A DNA stretch of 27,552 nucleotides from a virus. Made by a program: the position numbers and the translations under genes. Location: the IMG/VR virus record IMGVR_UViG_644736385_000001, positions 1 to 27,552 of that record. One strand, given 5' to 3'. The notes beneath the pieces are model-generated. The model was not told the DNA's origin. It saw nothing but the letters and a program-made list of their open reading frames with translations, and searched no databases. Position 1 is the first letter of the stretch, and every line of letters begins with the position of its first letter. Positions 8,523 to 18,555 of the stretch are shown here, piece by piece.

Positions 8523-9281
8523 ATGGCTTTAACTGCAAGAGAGGCAGAGATTGTAAAGAAAGCATTTAAGCAAATACATGATTCTCAGAATTTCATTAGG
8601 AAAATCATGCCAAAACAGAAGATAGATAAAGACAAGGAAGTTTATACGGTTGAAACTATTGAATTGGATGAGTCAATTTTGTCAGAAACAAGTATGGAAG
8701 TTATTGAAATCCCTTATAAAACTTCATCAACATCTAAGAGAATATTTGATTTAGCCGCAAAATTAACAAGACCGAGAAGATTATTAACTCCTGACAATTT
8801 TACAAAATTAAGTTTAATGCTTGCTAAAATTATCACAAAATCTGAAAACTATTACGGAATTAATGAATTGCTAACTAATTCAACAGTTGAAAGTGCATCA
8901 AAATCTTGGGATGCTGCTACGCCGAAAGATATTGTTAAAGATATTCAAAATGCTGTTATTCAAATACAACAATACACTAACGCACCAATAAACATGGTTT
9001 TACCAACTTCAAAGGCGACTTACTTTAAAACACCAAATGATTATGGATTATCTCCTGAAAATCTACTAAAAGGGACTATTACAAATGTATTTATCACAAA
9101 TTTAGTTAAGGATAAGGCAATATTAGTTCCTGCAGACCCTACAGTTGTGTCTTTCAATGTGGCTGAGGATTTGAAAGTGGATAAAAAAGAGGATTTAAAC
9201 ACTGCAATTATTTGGGCTACTGAAGCAATCTGTCCAAGTGTTGATTTAAAAGAAGCGGTAATTGTATTGAGTGGAATTTAA
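8523..9281 (+). CDS. Major capsid protein, compact HK97 fold (inferred)
   Basis: Position after protease and decoration gene, strong GAGGTGA RBS, and an overall pattern compatible with short HK97/encapsulin-like capsids. Confidence 0.75.
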   Translation: MALTAREAEIVKKAFKQIHDSQNFIRKIMPKQKIDKDKEVYTVETIELDESILSETSMEVIEIPYKTSSTSKRIFDLAAKLTRPRRLLTPDNFTKLSLMLAKIITKSENYYGINELLTNSTVESASKSWDAATPKDIVKDIQNAVIQIQQYTNAPINMVLPTSKATYFKTPNDYGLSPENLLKGTITNVFITNLVKDKAILVPADPTVVSFNVAEDLKVDKKEDLNTAIIWATEAICPSVDLKEAVIVLSGI

Positions 9282-9596: not shown

Positions 9597-9888
9597 CTAC
9601 ACTAATGCAAAGGCGTTAGTTGAGGAAATCATCAATAAGCTAAAAGAATCTGGTGTTAAAGTTAAATCTCCTTTATCCAAAATTCAAGATTTCCATTGTG
9701 AGGCAGATTTTTCTATTGAGATTGAAAATAGAGTAGCTTATGTAGATGCAACATTTACTTTTGATAAACCACCAAATTCTAACATGGTTGAGAAAATTGA
9801 AGCAGTTATGACAACGTATAACTCTTATTTGGAAAGGATTGACTTTGAGGCAGATTATACTAAGTTAGAGTTTAGGAGCGTGAGATAA
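9565..9888 (+). CDS. Tail terminator/neck protein (inferred)
   Basis: Alpha/beta protein just before the tail tube gene. Likely start TTG 9589, after GAGGGGGCGGTG. Confidence 0.5.
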
Positions 9889-10592
9889 TGGTGCTTCCAA
9901 TTAGTATTCCAGACCAAAGTAATATTTTAGGTTCTGGAAAGTTGGCAATTTTTGGAGCTAAATCTCAAATTGATACATTTACAGGAGATGGGGCGACAAA
10001 GGAATTTTCATTAACAAAGGATAACGCTGTATTGGGTTCTGAGGTTGTAAAAGTTGATGGAGTTCCAAAGGTTGAGGGGACTGATTACACTGCTGTGCAT
10101 GAGAATGGTATTCTAAAAAGTATTAAGTTTAACACAGCTCCAGCAAATGGTGCAGTTATTGAAGTTGAGTATTTGTATTTGGATTTACCACTCGGAGGAG
10201 CTTCTGAATTGAGTTTGAAAGAGGATAAAGACAAGGAGGAGGTAAGTGTTGATTGTTCTTATTCAACTATTCAAATTGAAAAAGGGGCTAAGATATCATT
10301 TAGTTTTAAGGACTTGCTTACAGTTGGAGATATCAACTTAACATCCTATTTTACTGGAGAGATTGAAGAAGGGAGCAGTTATGTTAGGTATAAAAACGGA
10401 GCTTCAAAGAGTGGGAACATTGCCGTCTTAGCTTATTCAAAAGAGGCCACATTAGCTCATGGAAAGGAAGCTCCTAAAAGAATCATCTTAATCTATGGAG
10501 CTATGCCAAATAGCTTGGATATTGATATTTCTGGAGCTACGAAGAGTTTTGACTTGACAGCTCAGGCATACAGAGTTATTGACTTAAAATAA
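9888..10592 (+). CDS. Major tail (tube) protein with an inserted beta-sandwich domain
   Basis: Tube-like pattern (LGSGKLAI...LGGASELSL...ISFSFKDL...IILIYGA...FDLTA) interrupted by an FTGDGATKEFSL...VDGV...DYT...IKFNTAPANG..IEVEY module. Confidence 0.75.
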   Translation: MVLPISIPDQSNILGSGKLAIFGAKSQIDTFTGDGATKEFSLTKDNAVLGSEVVKVDGVPKVEGTDYTAVHENGILKSIKFNTAPANGAVIEVEYLYLDLPLGGASELSLKEDKDKEEVSVDCSYSTIQIEKGAKISFSFKDLLTVGDINLTSYFTGEIEEGSSYVRYKNGASKSGNIAVLAYSKEATLAHGKEAPKRIILIYGAMPNSLDIDISGATKSFDLTAQAYRVIDLK

Positions 10593-10601
10593 GGTGATTA
10601 G

Positions 10602-10967
10602 ATGAACAATCACTTAGAATTCTTAAAACAGTTAGATGAGAAGTTTAAGGAATCAGAACAAAAGAATCTCGAAGCATTAGAAAAAATTAGGTCTAATTTA
10701 CCTCAATTAGAAATTGAGATATTTGGAGAAAAATTAACGGCAATAATTCCACCACTCTCAGTAGAAAAGGAAATGATTGAAGATGCGAATAAATTAGACC
10801 CTTTGAACTTTGCATTAAAATACATCCCAATTTTATATGGCATTCCAAAAGAGAAAGTTGAGGAATTACCTTCGATTGTTATTGCAGAACTTATCAAGAA
10901 TTACTTTGAGGCTTATAAGAAGTTAAACCAGGATAAATCCTTTCGCAATAGAGTGGGCGTTAAGTGA
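10602..10967 (+). CDS. Tail assembly chaperone (G-like)
   Basis: Lies between tail tube and tape measure genes; AAGGTGA RBS; ends in tandem TGA TGA. Confidence 0.75.
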   Translation: MNNHLEFLKQLDEKFKESEQKNLEALEKIRSNLPQLEIEIFGEKLTAIIPPLSVEKEMIEDANKLDPLNFALKYIPILYGIPKEKVEELPSIVIAELIKNYFEAYKKLNQDKSFRNRVGVK

Positions 10968-11115
10968 TGATGCAACAGAACTTTATTTAGTCTGCAAATT
11001 CCTAAGAATCCCCCCAAGTGAAGCGATAAAGCTAAATAGGATGGATTACAACATTATATTAGGATTTGCAATTAGAGAATTGAGGGATAAGCTAAAATAT
11101 GGGGGGATTCTATGA
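10945..11115 (+). CDS. Unannotated +1-frame extension of the tail chaperone (GT-like product, about 170 aa in total)
   Basis: The +1 frame is open 10927-11115 and encodes AIEWALSDDATELYLVCKFLRIPPSEAIKLNRMDYNIILGFAIRELRDKLKYGGIL. It has no start codon before 11041, and its stop overlaps the next ATG (ATGA 11112-11115). TCC-TTT-CGC lies at 10938-10946. Confidence 0.75.
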   Translation, partial: AIEWALSDDATELYLVCKFLRIPPSEAIKLNRMDYNIILGFAIRELRDKLKYGGIL

Positions 11116-11483
11116 GATGGCTCACACCATTCGGTATGTTGTTCATAAGTGGGACGTATTATGGATTAATATTTTTTGGCTTAATTATGGAAGTTATTCA
11201 TAATGCATTGGTTAGTTTAGTTTTAGCATTTTTTGTAGTATTTGTATGGGATTTAATTTTGTCCATAATATATGGTTTAAGATTTGTTAAAGAAGGGGAA
11301 TATCTATATTTAGAATGGAATGGGCAGTTTCCAGACCCTTATGGATTGTTTGCAAGCACGTGCCTTTCAGCAGTGATTTGGACATATACAGATTCATTAT
11401 TATTGGGTTTAATTGTCCCAGTTATTGTTGTATTCTTAGGAAAGCAGTTAATGCGTGGATTGTATGAAAAAGTTAAAAGTTGA
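11112..11483 (+). CDS. Multi-pass membrane protein between chaperone and tape measure genes
   Basis: Three to four hydrophobic segments; GGGGGG RBS; overlaps both neighbours. Confidence 0.75.
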   Translation: MRWLTPFGMLFISGTYYGLIFFGLIMEVIHNALVSLVLAFFVVFVWDLILSIIYGLRFVKEGEYLYLEWNGQFPDPYGLFASTCLSAVIWTYTDSLLLGLIVPVIVVFLGKQLMRGLYEKVKS

Positions 11484-14004
11484 AGGAACTTTGGAATTGA
11501 AATTGGATGATAAAGATGTAAGGAAAAATCTAAAATCATTAGAAAAAATAAAATCAAAATTAGAGATAGAAGGTAATATCAACGCAATAATTAAGCAATT
11601 GGATGAGTTAAAAAATGTCAAATCAGAAGTTGAATTTAAGAGTAATATAAACATGATTATTAGGGAGTTGGAAGAGATAGAGGCAGAAGCATCTAAAATG
11701 AACATAAACTTTGATTATGATTTATCAAAACTAAAAAGTGAATTAGAACAATTGAAAAACACAAAAATCGATATTAAAACAAATACAGACTATATATTAA
11801 AACAAATCAATAAAATAAAAAGTGAATTATCTGAAAAACAAACAATTAGGGCAAAGGTTGAAGTGGATAGAACAGAATGGGATAAACTAAAGAAGGAATG
11901 GTCTGAAAAATATCACATAGATGCCATTGCAGATGTGGCAAGTGTAGGAACTGCATACATGGGGATTTCCGACGCTGAAAAATACAACGAACTAATAACA
12001 ATTTTAAGAGAAAGGGGTTTGACTAAAGACCAAGCAGAGAGGTTAATACAACTTGGCTTATATAACGGCTATTCTTTGGATGAAATTAAAGATGGATTAG
12101 GATATGCAAATGAGGCAGTTTTGAAGTTAGCAGCATCAAATGATAAATATGCGGCTCAAATATTGGCAGCAATGGCAATGGCTGAAAGGGGAGGTAGTGA
12201 GTCAGGAGCAGATGACATTAGAAGGATGATAACCGCACTCGCTGCTTTAGGGAAGTCAAATGAAGAAATAATGAAAATGGTGAATGCTGAAGTTTTAGAA
12301 ATGAAGCAAGGGCATACAGAAGTCGCAGAAGCAATTAGAGAATTCAGCATAACAATGGGAGATACCTTAGACCCAGAAACGTTTGCATCAATATTGATTC
12401 AGGCACAAGCAGCAGGGGCTCAAGATGTAGGGCAGTTAGCAGATGCCATAAATGCATTAGCGTTAAATGCAAGACAGATGGGATTTGATGTAAAAACTGC
12501 ACTAAAAGAGATTCAAAAAACAAAAGATGATAAAACATTGGCAGAGTTGGCAAAAAAATATGGCTTAACTTATGAACAAATAGTTAAAATTCATGATTAT
12601 TTACAGAGGGTAGATTTAGATAAGGGCTTGCCAGACAATACCAACGAACTTGATAGGTTAATAAGCATAAATAAAGACCAAAGGGGAATTTTAGAAACGA
12701 TTAAGCAGGATATTGAAGGGTGGTTAGCAGGTCATGGGTTTTTACAATATGGAGCAGAGCTTGGAGTAACTCTTGGAGGTCTTGGAAAAATACTTGAAAT
12801 AGCAATTGGTGCAGCAATTGGTTCTGCGTTAAAAGATGCTTTTGGTAAAATTAAATCCATATTTGGTAAAATTAGTTTGGATAATTTAAAACTTCCAGAA
12901 CTCTCAAAAATCAAATTACCTGTTGATTTAGAAATCCCAAAAATTCCAAAACTCCACATGCCTAAGATTAAACTGCCAGTAGATTTAAAACTACCTAAAA
13001 TTCCAGAAATCAACATACCAAAAATTAACCTGCCAAACATCTCTGGATTATCTAATGCATTTAGGGGTTTAGGTGAAGCTGTTAGGTTTGCTGGAAGAGC
13101 TTTTGGAGTTTTATCAGTAGTTATTGAGCCATTAAAACAACTATTAAAAGGAGATATACAAGGAGCTATAGAGCATTTAAAAATAGGGCTTATTGAATTA
13201 GCCGCATGGCCAGTTGCTTTGGGAGAGATGTTAGCAGCTGTTACATTAGCTGTTGGTGATTTCTTAGGATTGTTTGACTTAGATGGAGACAGTCCATTAG
13301 CAGCTGCAAGAGCTGGGATTCTAACACTCTTAGCAGCATTTGAAAGCATTTATTCATTTATCACTGGTGATTGGAGTGTTGTAACTAACACACTGCAAGA
13401 AGCGTTTGAAACACTTGGAATGAAAGAGGATGAAGCCAGACAAGCAGCTGAAAACTTAGCCCAGCAATGGCAACAATTACCTCAGCAAATATTAGACGCA
13501 TTTAATGGCTTTGTTGATAATATTAAACAAACATTTAATAGGTGGTGGTATGAATTGAATATATGGTGGTCTCAAAAAATAGAAGAAGCTAAGAACTGGG
13601 GTAGTGATTTGATTCAAAATATAATTGATGGAATAAAAAGGAAGTTTTCAGAGTTGAGGAATGCTGTAAGTCAAGCTGCGAGTATTATATCGAACTACCT
13701 ACACCATACCACACCTGAAACAGGCCCATTAAAAGACGATGATAAATGGGGAATCCACTTTATGGAAAACATTATTGGTGGAATTAGAAAAGAAATTCCT
13801 AACTTAAAGAAAACTATTGATTATACTGCTCAACTGATGAGCTCCGCAAATCCTAAAAATTGGAAAATTCAACAAGTAGGAATGACACACAGCACATCTT
13901 ACTCTTATGGAGATATACACATAAATGTAGTTGGAAATAGCTTTAATGAGCATCAATTAGCTCAAAAAATTGCTTTAATTCTAAAAAGACAACAATTCAG
14001 ATAA
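11455..14004 (+). CDS. Tail tape measure protein
   Basis: About 850 aa, Ala/Gly-rich helical core, Trp-spaced C-terminal repeats (WWYELNIWWSQKIEEAKNWGSDLIQNIIDGI) and the typical ending GDIHINVVG...LAQKI. Likely start ATG 11464. Confidence 0.9.
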   Translation: MDCMKKLKVEGTLELKLDDKDVRKNLKSLEKIKSKLEIEGNINAIIKQLDELKNVKSEVEFKSNINMIIRELEEIEAEASKMNINFDYDLSKLKSELEQLKNTKIDIKTNTDYILKQINKIKSELSEKQTIRAKVEVDRTEWDKLKKEWSEKYHIDAIADVASVGTAYMGISDAEKYNELITILRERGLTKDQAERLIQLGLYNGYSLDEIKDGLGYANEAVLKLAASNDKYAAQILAAMAMAERGGSESGADDIRRMITALAALGKSNEEIMKMVNAEVLEMKQGHTEVAEAIREFSITMGDTLDPETFASILIQAQAAGAQDVGQLADAINALALNARQMGFDVKTALKEIQKTKDDKTLAELAKKYGLTYEQIVKIHDYLQRVDLDKGLPDNTNELDRLISINKDQRGILETIKQDIEGWLAGHGFLQYGAELGVTLGGLGKILEIAIGAAIGSALKDAFGKIKSIFGKISLDNLKLPELSKIKLPVDLEIPKIPKLHMPKIKLPVDLKLPKIPEINIPKINLPNISGLSNAFRGLGEAVRFAGRAFGVLSVVIEPLKQLLKGDIQGAIEHLKIGLIELAAWPVALGEMLAAVTLAVGDFLGLFDLDGDSPLAAARAGILTLLAAFESIYSFITGDWSVVTNTLQEAFETLGMKEDEARQAAENLAQQWQQLPQQILDAFNGFVDNIKQTFNRWWYELNIWWSQKIEEAKNWGSDLIQNIIDGIKRKFSELRNAVSQAASIISNYLHHTTPETGPLKDDDKWGIHFMENIIGGIRKEIPNLKKTIDYTAQLMSSANPKNWKIQQVGMTHSTSYSYGDIHINVVGNSFNEHQLAQKIALILKRQQFR

Positions 14005-14591: not shown

Positions 14592-15641
14592 ATGTCCCCA
14601 ATCCTCTCTAACACCAATTCTTTTTTGTCAAACAGTGATTACAGTGACGGTAACACTAACAGTGGGCAAACCAATAGTTCCACACAACCTATTTTGTCAA
14701 ACACATCAAATGTGTTATATAATACAGTGCAAACAAGCCAGACACCAACAACAAACACAAGCACTGCGACTCCAATATTATCAAATGCGGCTGATACACT
14801 TTACAATACAATAGCAACAAAACAATCAAATTCAGCTACAAATGTAACAACACCAATATTGTCAAATATGGCTAATATGCTTTACAACACTATATTATCA
14901 GCAAAACAATCAAATTCAGATTCAAACATCACAACACCAACATTGATGAACGCGTCAAATGCACTTACTAATACAACAATAACAACAACTCAACAGACAA
15001 CTACGCCAACGCCAAGTGTAACAGTTATAGAACACAAAGTTTGGAGGGAAGGAAACACTGTTTATTCAAAAATCGTTTATTCTGATGGAACAGAAGATTT
15101 AAAAACATTAGATTTAACCGATTATTACAATGAAGCTTATAACGAAGGTGTAAATAGTGTTGATTTTAGTAAAACAAATCATACAATTGAAAATGGAATT
15201 ATCAAAGTAACAACTACACTAACTAATGGAAAATCACAAGAATATGCTATCACTCTTGATGAAAACTTAATTGTTAGTTTGTATAATCAAATTATGGCAA
15301 ATAGAAGTAGTTGTTTCCAAATTAGACAAAATGAAACAGAATATAGCTTTTTAGTTGAAAGCAGACAGTATCAGCCACAACCAAACTTAGCATATCAGCC
15401 CGCAGTTGATGGAACACCGGTCTATGAAATTTTAGGAAAAGAGCAAAAAACGTGGAATTTCACACTTTATGTTGATACTATCCCAAAAATGCAGTTTCTT
15501 CAACAGTTAGCAAGTAATCCAGTATGTGAAGTATATTTCGATGAAATTGATGATTGGAAACAGGCGTTAATCACTTCCATAAGCTTGACAAGAATAACTA
15601 CTGGACATTACTATGCCGATATTGAACTGGTGATTTTATGA
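14592..15641 (+). CDS. Tail protein: N-terminal Thr/Asn/Ser-rich repeats plus C-terminal distal-tail (Dit)-like domain
   Basis: Repeats of PILSN..N.LYNT at about 26-30 aa spacing. The last ~110 aa (YQPAVDGTPVYEILGKEQKTWNFTL...ITSISL) have a Dit-like pattern. Confidence 0.6.
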   Translation: MSPILSNTNSFLSNSDYSDGNTNSGQTNSSTQPILSNTSNVLYNTVQTSQTPTTNTSTATPILSNAADTLYNTIATKQSNSATNVTTPILSNMANMLYNTILSAKQSNSDSNITTPTLMNASNALTNTTITTTQQTTTPTPSVTVIEHKVWREGNTVYSKIVYSDGTEDLKTLDLTDYYNEAYNEGVNSVDFSKTNHTIENGIIKVTTTLTNGKSQEYAITLDENLIVSLYNQIMANRSSCFQIRQNETEYSFLVESRQYQPQPNLAYQPAVDGTPVYEILGKEQKTWNFTLYVDTIPKMQFLQQLASNPVCEVYFDEIDDWKQALITSISLTRITTGHYYADIELVIL

Positions 15642-16192: not shown

Positions 16193-18555
16193 AGAGTATG
16201 GTTCAACTAAATGCTACTGGTTATGTTTCAAATTATAATTGGGAAAAAAGAATATTTGATGCTGTTTGTTACACATCTAATGAAGTTCAAATTGGTCAAA
16301 TTACACCGCCACCAAAAGGTTGGTTGATTGTCGATAGTGCAATTTGTCAATCACCAGATAGCGGACCTCTTCGCTATTATTCTGAAGTTCCTGTAACCTC
16401 AACGTACATTCTAGAAGATTATAGGGGTAATAGATCGATAGCAGCAATAATACGAGGGGATATTAACGCTCCTGACAAAAAAGAATATATTACCGTCAGA
16501 ACTGTTGGATTCGATATATCTGCACAATTCAATATTGTTGAAACTGTAAAGTCTTCGGGAGTATTAAGGGTTGAATTACCACCTGTACACATAACTGATG
16601 AGATTGAAATCGTCTATCACTTCCATACTGAATCATTCGAAATAAACATACATAGGGATAATTCGAACAAAAACTGTTGGATTGAATTTCTTGACTATTT
16701 CAACCCAGATAACTATAAAAGTTCTTTTATAACAAATTTGCCTAAAAAACCTGATGATGAAGATATGGCAGTTTTAATTGATGGTGTAACATTAAGCGGT
16801 GAGGTTATTTTTGAAGTTACGGCTGGGAATGAAAAACGGTATGTAAGAGTACATTTTGATGACTTTGAACTTGAAATAGACCCAATATATATTGCAGAAG
16901 TTTATACCATCTCCAATTACGGTCTACTGGTAGATATATTTGGAATAGTTTACTATGTAGGAGGGTTGACAAGTTTTATACTACCGCTTGTTCCACATTT
17001 CTATATTAGAGTGGACGATGTTGCCATACCGATTGAAATTGAATACCAAGCCAATTTCAAATGCAATGGTGGTTCTAAACAGTATTCCAAACGGCAAATA
17101 ATAACGGATGGAGGGTTGTTTGTTCCAATATTGCCAGCAAGTGAAGGAATAACAGATACTACCGTCAATGCCTGGGGAAGGTGGGTATTAAACTGGACAA
17201 AAAATGGAGACACATTTACATTCACATTCAAAAACTTCACATATTCAGTTTATGACTATGATTGGCTACAGTGTGATGATGTCAAGGCAGAAATAGAACA
17301 TAAAATCGTCTTACATTACGTTGATGGTTCTACTAAAGAGTTTGACCTTGAACCTGTTGTTGCTACAAGTGATGTATGTTCTCAACTGCCAAAGAAAGAC
17401 GTTTTTGCTGAATCATTTGATTCGATAACACCTGCCTGTGTTTGTTATAGAAACAGCGAAGCATCAAAAACAGTTACTTACACAATTAGTTATTTTACGA
17501 GAGATTATAATCCAAAGCTTTACAATATCAAATATTCACTCCTTAGAGTTTATTATGATGATGTTATTTTGTATGACGGTGTTGCGAAAGAAGAGATTAC
17601 GATAACGTTCAATTTACCAGAAAATACTGTGAAGCACGTGGTATTCGAGCTATATGGTGATGGATATGTTGCAGATAGAAAGACTGTCATTGTTGAAAGG
17701 CGACAATACTGCCACGCTATAAACATAAATGCCAAGACCTATGATTTAGAAGGTAATGAAACAAACAAATTCCCTCATCCAACAAGTGCAGATTATGATG
17801 AAAATAAACACTCTGAAATAATTGTCAAAATCAAAATAAAAGATGAACAGGGGAACTACATTGATGTTCCAGTTGATAAAATCAAAACCAATTGGCAATA
17901 CAACGTAGAGAAAGTAGATACTGGCGTCTATCAAATGAAAATACTAAACACTGCCGATAATGCACTGAATATCCAAGATTATGGAATATCGGTTTATATT
18001 GATAAACAATGGTGCAATGAAAACGGTTACTACAACAAATATAACATTGAAGCTGAAAACATAATAATAAATAGCGACAAAATAGAAAAGATTGGATTAT
18101 GGAATTTTAACGGCATCGACCATTATGAAAACGGTGTAACCTATCTAAAACAGAAATATGAAAAAGTTTCTGGAATATTTGTAAATCCAATTGTTGAATT
18201 CTCCATAGTAGAACAACTAAACAAAGAAAGAGATAGGTGGCAATATTCATACTGTTATAGGATTTATGACAGTCCAATGGAATTGAATCTACCAACTTAC
18301 ACAGATGAGGAAAAGAAAGAACTTGCTAAGGCAATAGTAAGAGAAATGGGAAAACCAAGAAAAATAGAAACCTTCACAATATTATCAAAAGAGATTCCCA
18401 AAATCAATTCATCAATTACTGTAAATTATAATGGGCAACTAATTTCAATGCCTGTATATTCTGTAAGATTCAGTTTAGAAAACTCGAACATTCAAATTCA
18501 AATAAGAAACGACCAATTAAAATTGTTGAAAGATTATCTATCACTAATTAAATAA
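16156..18555 (+). CDS. Large tail-tip/adhesin protein
   Basis: About 790 aa, beta-rich in Tyr/Ile/Val, last gene of the virion operon. GGTGA RBS suggests ATG 16198. The C-terminus resembles hub C-terminal domains. Confidence 0.6.
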   Translation: MGHRNYKPSYMVKSMVQLNATGYVSNYNWEKRIFDAVCYTSNEVQIGQITPPPKGWLIVDSAICQSPDSGPLRYYSEVPVTSTYILEDYRGNRSIAAIIRGDINAPDKKEYITVRTVGFDISAQFNIVETVKSSGVLRVELPPVHITDEIEIVYHFHTESFEINIHRDNSNKNCWIEFLDYFNPDNYKSSFITNLPKKPDDEDMAVLIDGVTLSGEVIFEVTAGNEKRYVRVHFDDFELEIDPIYIAEVYTISNYGLLVDIFGIVYYVGGLTSFILPLVPHFYIRVDDVAIPIEIEYQANFKCNGGSKQYSKRQIITDGGLFVPILPASEGITDTTVNAWGRWVLNWTKNGDTFTFTFKNFTYSVYDYDWLQCDDVKAEIEHKIVLHYVDGSTKEFDLEPVVATSDVCSQLPKKDVFAESFDSITPACVCYRNSEASKTVTYTISYFTRDYNPKLYNIKYSLLRVYYDDVILYDGVAKEEITITFNLPENTVKHVVFELYGDGYVADRKTVIVERRQYCHAININAKTYDLEGNETNKFPHPTSADYDENKHSEIIVKIKIKDEQGNYIDVPVDKIKTNWQYNVEKVDTGVYQMKILNTADNALNIQDYGISVYIDKQWCNENGYYNKYNIEAENIIINSDKIEKIGLWNFNGIDHYENGVTYLKQKYEKVSGIFVNPIVEFSIVEQLNKERDRWQYSYCYRIYDSPMELNLPTYTDEEKKELAKAIVREMGKPRKIETFTILSKEIPKINSSITVNYNGQLISMPVYSVRFSLENSNIQIQIRNDQLKLLKDYLSLIK

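Follow-up and report, generated by a model that had tools for sequence, protein, structure and literature searches.

A +1 ribosomal frameshift at the sequence UUU_C is predicted to extend a short tail gene, G, of an archaeal provirus by a segment, T, which is read in another frame and lacks a start codon of its own. A probability of about 0.8 was assigned to this reading, i.e., to the expression of T as a +1 trans-frame extension of G, on the basis of sequence comparison. The window, that is, the whole stretch of DNA that was analysed (27,552 nucleotides of IMG/VR record IMGVR_UViG_644736385_000001), had previously been read from its letters only, and it had been claimed that a 121-aa and a ~170-aa product are made by a +1 shift. 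This sequence-only reading was supported by the conservation of the +1 frame, by the constraint acting on it and by an invariant UUU_C; the mechanism is inferred, as are the slip, how efficient it would be and what G and T do.

Provirus context and layout of the locus

The window is a head-tail provirus, and is best explained as carrying a siphovirus-type provirus of a Methanocaldococcus, a heat-loving methanogen. The host may be Methanocaldococcus fervens AG86, whose provirus is the isolated siphovirus MFTV1. The description of MFTV1 as an isolated siphovirus is that of Thiroux et al. (2021), as cited in PMC8651126. An ORF at positions 8523-9281 matched HK97-type capsid families weakly. The features of the locus under study are as follows (positions of the window).

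9888..10592, plus strand: putative major tail (tube) protein, 234 aa; conserved position and weak tail-tube leads
10602..10967, plus strand: G, putative tail assembly chaperone; ORF of 121 aa ending TGA TGA; homologues in M. jannaschii (MJ_0341), in M. voltae and in metagenomes from vents, among others
10938..10946, plus strand: predicted shift cassette UCC_UUU_CGC; slip from UUU 10941-10943 to UUC 10942-10944
10942..11115, plus strand: T segment; +1 codons from TTC to TGA 11113-11115; 56 residues after Phe114, giving a predicted GT of 170 aa
11112..11483, plus strand: membrane protein ORF, 123 aa; its ATG overlaps the T stop (ATGA)
11455..14004, plus strand: tail length tape measure protein; phrog_58 (3e-15) and seven more tape-measure PHROGs; PF10145 weak

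All coordinates and codons of the sequence-only reading were re-read and found to be correct. According to the ORF reading of the window, the 0-frame ORF (10602-10967, plus strand) comprises 121 codons and ends in a tandem stop, TGA TGA, at 10965-10970. The -1 frame is shut by TAA 10934 and TAG 10949, and the ATGs around the G stop belong to this frame. The +1 frame is open over 62 codons, from TAA 10924-10926 to TGA 11113-11115. Its earliest ATG, GTG or TTG is ATG 11041, and the start-less +1 ORF (10927-11115) overlaps the end of the 121-codon ORF. TCC TTT CGC is located at 10938-10946, with CGC as codon 115 and the sole CGN codon of the 0-frame ORF. The stop of the +1 ORF and the ATG of the next ORF (11112) share the sequence ATGA.

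In a genome-wide count, a +1 frame open for this length past the stop was found at 13% of the ORFs of at least 100 aa. Such open frames are common because the next gene mostly uses that frame. The open length is therefore uninformative alone, and the case rests on the comparative evidence, which was graded as strong on the sequences compared.

The 234-aa ORF upstream of G kept its position in all relatives, in which it encodes 234-239 aa. Matches to PHROG and Pfam were weak, and the leads obtained from a protein atlas were the phage tail-tube clusters PF25681, PF27173 and PF06199 (scores 0.88-0.91). From its position and these weak leads, it was assigned as a putative major tail (tube) protein. 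The order of tail-tube-like gene, G, start-less +1 ORF and tape measure gene was the same in all relatives. The gene pair is thus at the usual place of the G/GT chaperones of long-tailed viruses, i.e., two ORFs lie between the tail tube and the tape measure gene, here with a small membrane-protein ORF interposed.

Relatives of the module

In a search of 40 Methanococcales genomes, G was detected in M. jannaschii (MJ_0341, 91% identity) and in three Methanococcus voltae genomes (27-32% identity). Eight further, more distant G proteins of hydrothermal-vent metagenomes emerged when 1.8 billion proteins were searched with a profile, and more contigs with the module were recovered by a profile of the T segment. 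Altogether, about ten diverged lineages with saturated synonymous divergence were compared; they are related to one another, so counts across lineages are not independent. The M. jannaschii module (L002, 1492-2002) adjoins MJ_0341, shows 91-94% identity to that of the window and carries an identical UCC_UUU_CGC.

The IMG/VR contigs L011, L012 and L013 carried the module as well, with T segments 100% and 94% identical to that of the window. The occurrence of a near-identical module in viral contigs from metagenomes indicates close kin of the window and M. jannaschii proviruses in environmental samples. The T search of viral contigs returned near-identical copies only. Matches of the T profile to genome contigs were spurious, located inside unrelated long proteins of bacteria and Desulfurococcales, and the phage collection gave neither a DNA match nor a meaningful protein match.

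The T segment as coding sequence

The sequence-only reading had depended on conservation of the +1 ORF in relatives; the ORF was conserved in each relative recovered, and the frame in which T is read was subject to purifying selection. A +1 ORF of 61-98 codons overlapped the end of G in every lineage, and the -1 frame closed after 6-17 codons. A conserved helical segment of ~57 aa, T, was encoded in every lineage. In distant lineages its identity to the copy of the window was 33-53%, that of G being 27-43%. Motifs of T were W-A-x-S, IYLV, an EA pair, LGFA-x-R and a terminal RG[IL]L.

Pairwise dN/dS of T was 0.07-0.2. The stretch 10972-11040, bounded on one side by the two stops of G and on the other by the earliest possible start codon, had a pN/pS of 0.08 in the T frame versus 3.85 and 0.81 in the other two frames, and the differences within it were concentrated on third codon positions. 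Judged by this pattern of substitutions, the +1 ORF is a genuine coding sequence under purifying selection in its own frame. As in G/GT pairs, the second ORF is start-less, overlaps the first and is conserved as coding.

The T segment alone was predicted by AlphaFold as a small helical domain with a pLDDT of 91.9. Among viral structures, the best matches of this model carried the name tail assembly chaperone or, in the case of the top match, came from Haloferax tailed virus 1 (a 50-aa protein, TM score 0.72-0.80).

The predicted shift site and its conservation

An in-frame UUU followed by C was present at the homologous place in the frame overlap of all lineages and is the invariant element of the site, in spite of a G protein identity of only 27-45% between them. 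The sequences observed were as follows.

UCC_UUU_CGC: window, M. jannaschii and two metagenomic variants
UCC_UUU_CUG: M. voltae and one vent lineage
UCC_UUU_CUU: two vent lineages
UCC_UUU_CUA: two vent lineages
AAA_UUU_CGA: two vent lineages
AAU_UUU_CGC: two vent lineages

The conservation of TTTCG, to which the sequence-only reading had pointed as a check, was confirmed for TTT and the following C; the CGN codon was replaced by CUN in most lineages. UCC preceded UUU in the window and in seven of nine lineage groups, and AAA or AAU in the other two. Wherever the residue at this place was serine (seven lineages), it was encoded by UCC, which accounts for 7-9% of the serine codons in both host genera. 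Since UCC is kept synonymously and the +1 frame would be untranslated upstream of the slip, this points to selection on the RNA sequence.

The place of the shift could be narrowed down from both sides. In M. voltae the 0-frame stop follows two codons past UUU (TCC TTT CTG GAT TAG), and in the window the +1 frame does not open until five codons ahead of UUU. Provided that the site is homologous, the shift is therefore confined to AAA_UCC_UUU_C. Within the overlap of the window (10927-10964), no codon other than UUU allows its P-site tRNA to re-pair at +1.

No consensus base pairs indicating a stimulatory RNA structure 3' of the site were detected in an alignment of 12 lineages, and the window sequence 3' of the site folded no better than shuffled sequences (z +0.5). 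The overlap contained no homopolymer run of more than 3 bases, and no start codon near the site was conserved across lineages. In-frame UUU_C also turned up at further places, both in the G genes of some relatives and in structural genes of the window besides G (CAG_TTT_CCA at 11328, CAG_TTT_CTT at 15495 and GAA_TTT_CTT at 16687, none of them after UCC). UUU_C alone is therefore insufficient, and its context matters.

Codon usage and tRNAs

The claimed rarity of CGN codons was borne out for CGC. In 1005 long ORFs of the genome, CGC was the rarest sense codon (40 of 371,000 codons; 0.11 per 1000); UUU_CGC occurred three times and in-frame UCC_UUU_C once in these ORFs. A single tRNA-Phe(GAA) and a tRNA-Arg(GCG) are encoded in the genome. 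The site of the window thus combines UUU followed by C, UCC 5' of UUU and a rare CGN codon (CGC) in the A site. In M. voltae, CUG was the third rarest sense codon (1.24 per 1000, determined in 200 kb). CGN is not required family-wide, as CUG, CUU and CUA also follow UUU. CUU and CUA are only moderately rare, and CGC is presumably a common codon in GC-rich haloarchaea; a hungry codon is therefore not the whole explanation.

Proposed mechanism and products

Most ribosomes would stay in the 0 frame and terminate at TGA 10965, yielding G (121 aa). A fraction of them is proposed to halt at CGC, for which the A site is still waiting; the P site would then hold peptidyl-tRNA-Phe (anticodon GAA), paired with UUU 10941-10943. 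The tRNA-Phe could then re-pair one base forward on UUC, by which a G:U wobble would be replaced by a G:C pair. Decoding would resume in the +1 frame at GCA and end at TGA 11113, yielding GT with 170 aa and the junction ...QDKSF|AIEWALSDD...; the predicted tryptic junction peptide is SFAIEWALSDDATELYLVCK. UCC in the E site would belong to the signal, which is also the case in influenza A PA-X and human PLEKHM2.

If phage lambda is taken as the model, the tape measure protein would be coated by G together with the G portion of GT, and the tail tube protein would be brought in by the T portion. The rate of slipping would set the ratio of G to GT.

Alternative explanations

T could be produced as a small protein of its own if ribosomes initiate internally on a start codon that is near-cognate or peculiar to the lineage, or if they re-initiate once G has been terminated. 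For some lineages, gene callers set a start (ATG, GTG or TTG) close to the site (MKWAL..., MEMSQ..., MINPF..., VKWAQ...), and an ATG or GTG was located at most 3 codons from the site in three lineages, for which separate initiation retains some probability. The positions of these starts differ by lineage, however, and they are absent in the window, M. jannaschii, M. voltae and the vent lineage L038. The window is without ATG, GTG or TTG between TAA 10924 and ATG 11041, yet this stretch is strongly constrained in the T frame, and no Shine-Dalgarno-like sequence precedes the site. Initiation at ATG 11041 itself had been named as an outcome that would speak against the shift; the constrained coding signal starts ~95 nt upstream of this codon, and T therefore cannot start there. 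Independent initiation of T was accordingly regarded as unlikely. T is either left unannotated or called from arbitrary starts, which agrees with the expectation that the recoding had been missed by annotation.

The +1 frame could also be reached by a -2 ribosomal slip, by a short bypass or by an indel due to RNA polymerase slippage. A -2 shift or a one-base change of the transcript would yield the same downstream frame, and these routes are indistinguishable from a +1 slip at the protein level here. Polymerase slippage is unlikely, as no homopolymer of more than 3 bases is present in the overlap. No tRNA of the overlap can re-pair at -2, and matched take-off and landing codons for a bypass are missing. 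Moreover, nucleotide conservation is limited to (UCC_)UUU_C, which is known as a +1 cassette, and recoding by one of these other routes was considered very unlikely. Lowest of all was rated the explanation that G is the only product, the +1 ORF being a degenerating leftover or a frame open by chance in a prophage that is defective. The frequency of such open +1 frames in the genome (13% of ORFs) would fit this explanation. It is opposed by the dN/dS of 0.07-0.2, by the intact ORF in about ten, mutually related lineages with saturated synonymous divergence, and by the high confidence with which the fold of the T segment was predicted; it appears hardly credible. A +1 slip of the ribosome at UUU_C is thus the preferred reading.

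Assignment of G as a tail assembly chaperone

The model of G had a pLDDT of 75.6. Its best four matches among 48,161 PDB chains were 5ir0 (phage-satellite ORF19, Z 5.1), 2ob9 (HK97 tail assembly chaperone, Z 4.8), 3klu (prophage protein YqbN, Z 4.7) and 3fgx (Z 4.4). These structure scores (Z 4.4-5.1; Foldseek E 0.007 or worse) are within the range of chance matches, but chaperones are enriched among the matches. A Foldseek search of G against the PDB returned nothing. Among viral structures, the G model gave weak matches to several entries named tail assembly or tape measure chaperone.

Sequence searches of Pfam, PHROGs and the PDB with G, T and their profiles returned no chaperone family. 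One match of the sequence search, 8fje, is a designed repeat protein and was discarded. By position and gene architecture, G and T are assigned to the G/GT chaperones.

The models of G and T matched proteins of two haloarchaeal tailed viruses. Two accessions next to each other were hit, H9YPG6 by the G model and H9YPG7 by the T model, and probably stem from adjacent genes of a single tailed virus. The model matches give a hint that the fold of T may be common to haloarchaeal viruses despite the lack of sequence similarity.

Comparison with known recoding systems

A TTT-CGC +1 shift has been proposed for the chaperone pair of the HF1-group myoviruses (Dyall-Smith et al. 2020, PMC7230728). The statement in the sequence-only reading that UUU-CGN +1 sites had been proposed for haloarchaeal viruses was therefore right as to the TTT-CGn proposal, and wrong in naming siphoviruses, since it concerns the HF1-group myoviruses (PMC7230728). 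In haloarchaeal siphoviruses -1 sites have been described, together with a likely +1 site in the myovirus HSTV-2 (Atkins et al. 2016, PMC5009743; De Lise et al. 2021, PMC8211752). According to reviews, just one programmed frameshift has been demonstrated in Archaea, a -1 shift in fucA1 of Saccharolobus, and no +1 shift (PMC8211752).

The HF1 group (HF1, HF2, Serpecor1 and Hardycor2; Hafunaviridae) and HSTV-2 resemble the provirus in that all are tailed viruses of archaea in which the tape measure gene is preceded by two chaperone ORFs. In the HF1 group the second ORF is likewise in the +1 frame, with UUU_CGC just before the stop of the first ORF; in HF2, the first chaperone CDS was read to end in AAG TTT CGC AGA TAG. 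Both cases are predictions. The HF1 group consists of myoviruses of GC-rich halophiles in which TTT is rare (PMC7230728), whereas the window is siphovirus-like and comes from an AT-rich hyperthermophile. UCC is missing before UUU in the HF1 group, and no sequence similarity to the module of the window was detectable. In the methanogen module, by contrast, UCC is conserved and the codon following UUU varies (CGC, CGA, CUG, CUU, CUA). The support comes from about ten diverged, mutually related lineages for the methanogen module and from six close genomes for the HF1 group.

As had been stated in the sequence-only reading, UCC-UUU-CGN is the +1 site of influenza A PA-X, where UCC_UUU_CGU was shown to shift by junction peptides (PMC5009743). 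UCC_UUU_CGG of human PLEKHM2 was shown in the same way (bioRxiv 10.1101/2024.08.30.610563). Mutation of UCC lowers the efficiency of these sites, and RNA structure is not needed (PMC5009743; bioRxiv 10.1101/2024.08.30.610563). The archaeal site shares with both the E- and P-site codons, the CGN codon that comes next, the independence of a stimulatory RNA structure and the proposed re-pairing of tRNA-Phe from UUU to UUC with an empty A site. PA-X and PLEKHM2 differ in that eukaryotic ribosomes and unrelated proteins are involved and that shifting was proven by junction peptides and reporters, whereas the archaeal site is predicted. In the archaeal family, furthermore, CUN is accepted in place of CGN, and two lineages are without UCC.

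With the G/GT pair of phage lambda, the locus has in common the position between the genes for tail tube and tape measure, a short first ORF, a start-less overlapping second ORF and similar product sizes (121 and 170 aa here); the role of the G:GT ratio is presumed to be the same. Lambda and most phages use a -1 slip on an X_XXY_YYZ heptamer (Xu, Hendrix and Duda 2004, as cited in PMC5009743). In the window, in contrast, the -1 frame is closed, the predicted shift is +1, and a small membrane-protein gene is located between T and the tape measure gene.

The methanogen chaperone site is thus a further case of an already predicted kind and does not represent a new mechanism. What is added is an unusually deep comparative support and an extension of the codon after UUU from CGN to CUN. 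The annotation of T, which was missing or started at arbitrary codons, is corrected. A phylogenetically well-supported +1 site is provided in tractable organisms (Methanococcus, M. jannaschii), probably in an isolated, inducible virus, and allows a cassette of the influenza/PLEKHM2 type to be tested on archaeal ribosomes. As a tentative and rather doubtful extension, (UCC_)UUU_C may be an old recoding signal common to unrelated archaeal tailed viruses, from siphoviruses of Methanococcales to haloarchaeal myoviruses. It would then work on archaeal ribosomes up to ~85°C by the mechanism used in influenza A and human cells, and in the methanogen viruses it might also meter a third product, the membrane protein, via re-initiation at ATGA.

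The small membrane-protein gene downstream of T

The ORF at the T stop encodes a membrane protein of 123 aa in the window and M. jannaschii and of 43-64 aa in non-voltae lineages. The overlap of the T stop with the ATG of the membrane protein (ATGA) was present in all non-voltae lineages. In these lineages a Shine-Dalgarno-like GAGG or GGGG was also found within the last codons of T, which encode Arg-Gly-Ile/Leu-Leu. The translation of the membrane protein might be coupled to ribosomes that have shifted frame. The small ORF is missing in M. voltae, in which a tape-measure-like gene follows directly after T. The regions compared were as follows.

Window 11085-11483: end of T and small membrane-protein ORF
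L030 3101-3232, L032 3460-3603, L033 1153-1323, L035 1586-1726: small membrane-protein ORF in contigs of relatives
L037 3511-3705, L038 1199-1390, L041 1659-1790, L042 1665-1808: small membrane-protein ORF in further contigs

In the window, the membrane-protein ORF and the tape measure ORF, as listed from a GTG start, have 29 nt in common (11455-11483). With this start, the tape measure ORF is again in the +1 frame relative to the membrane-protein ORF.
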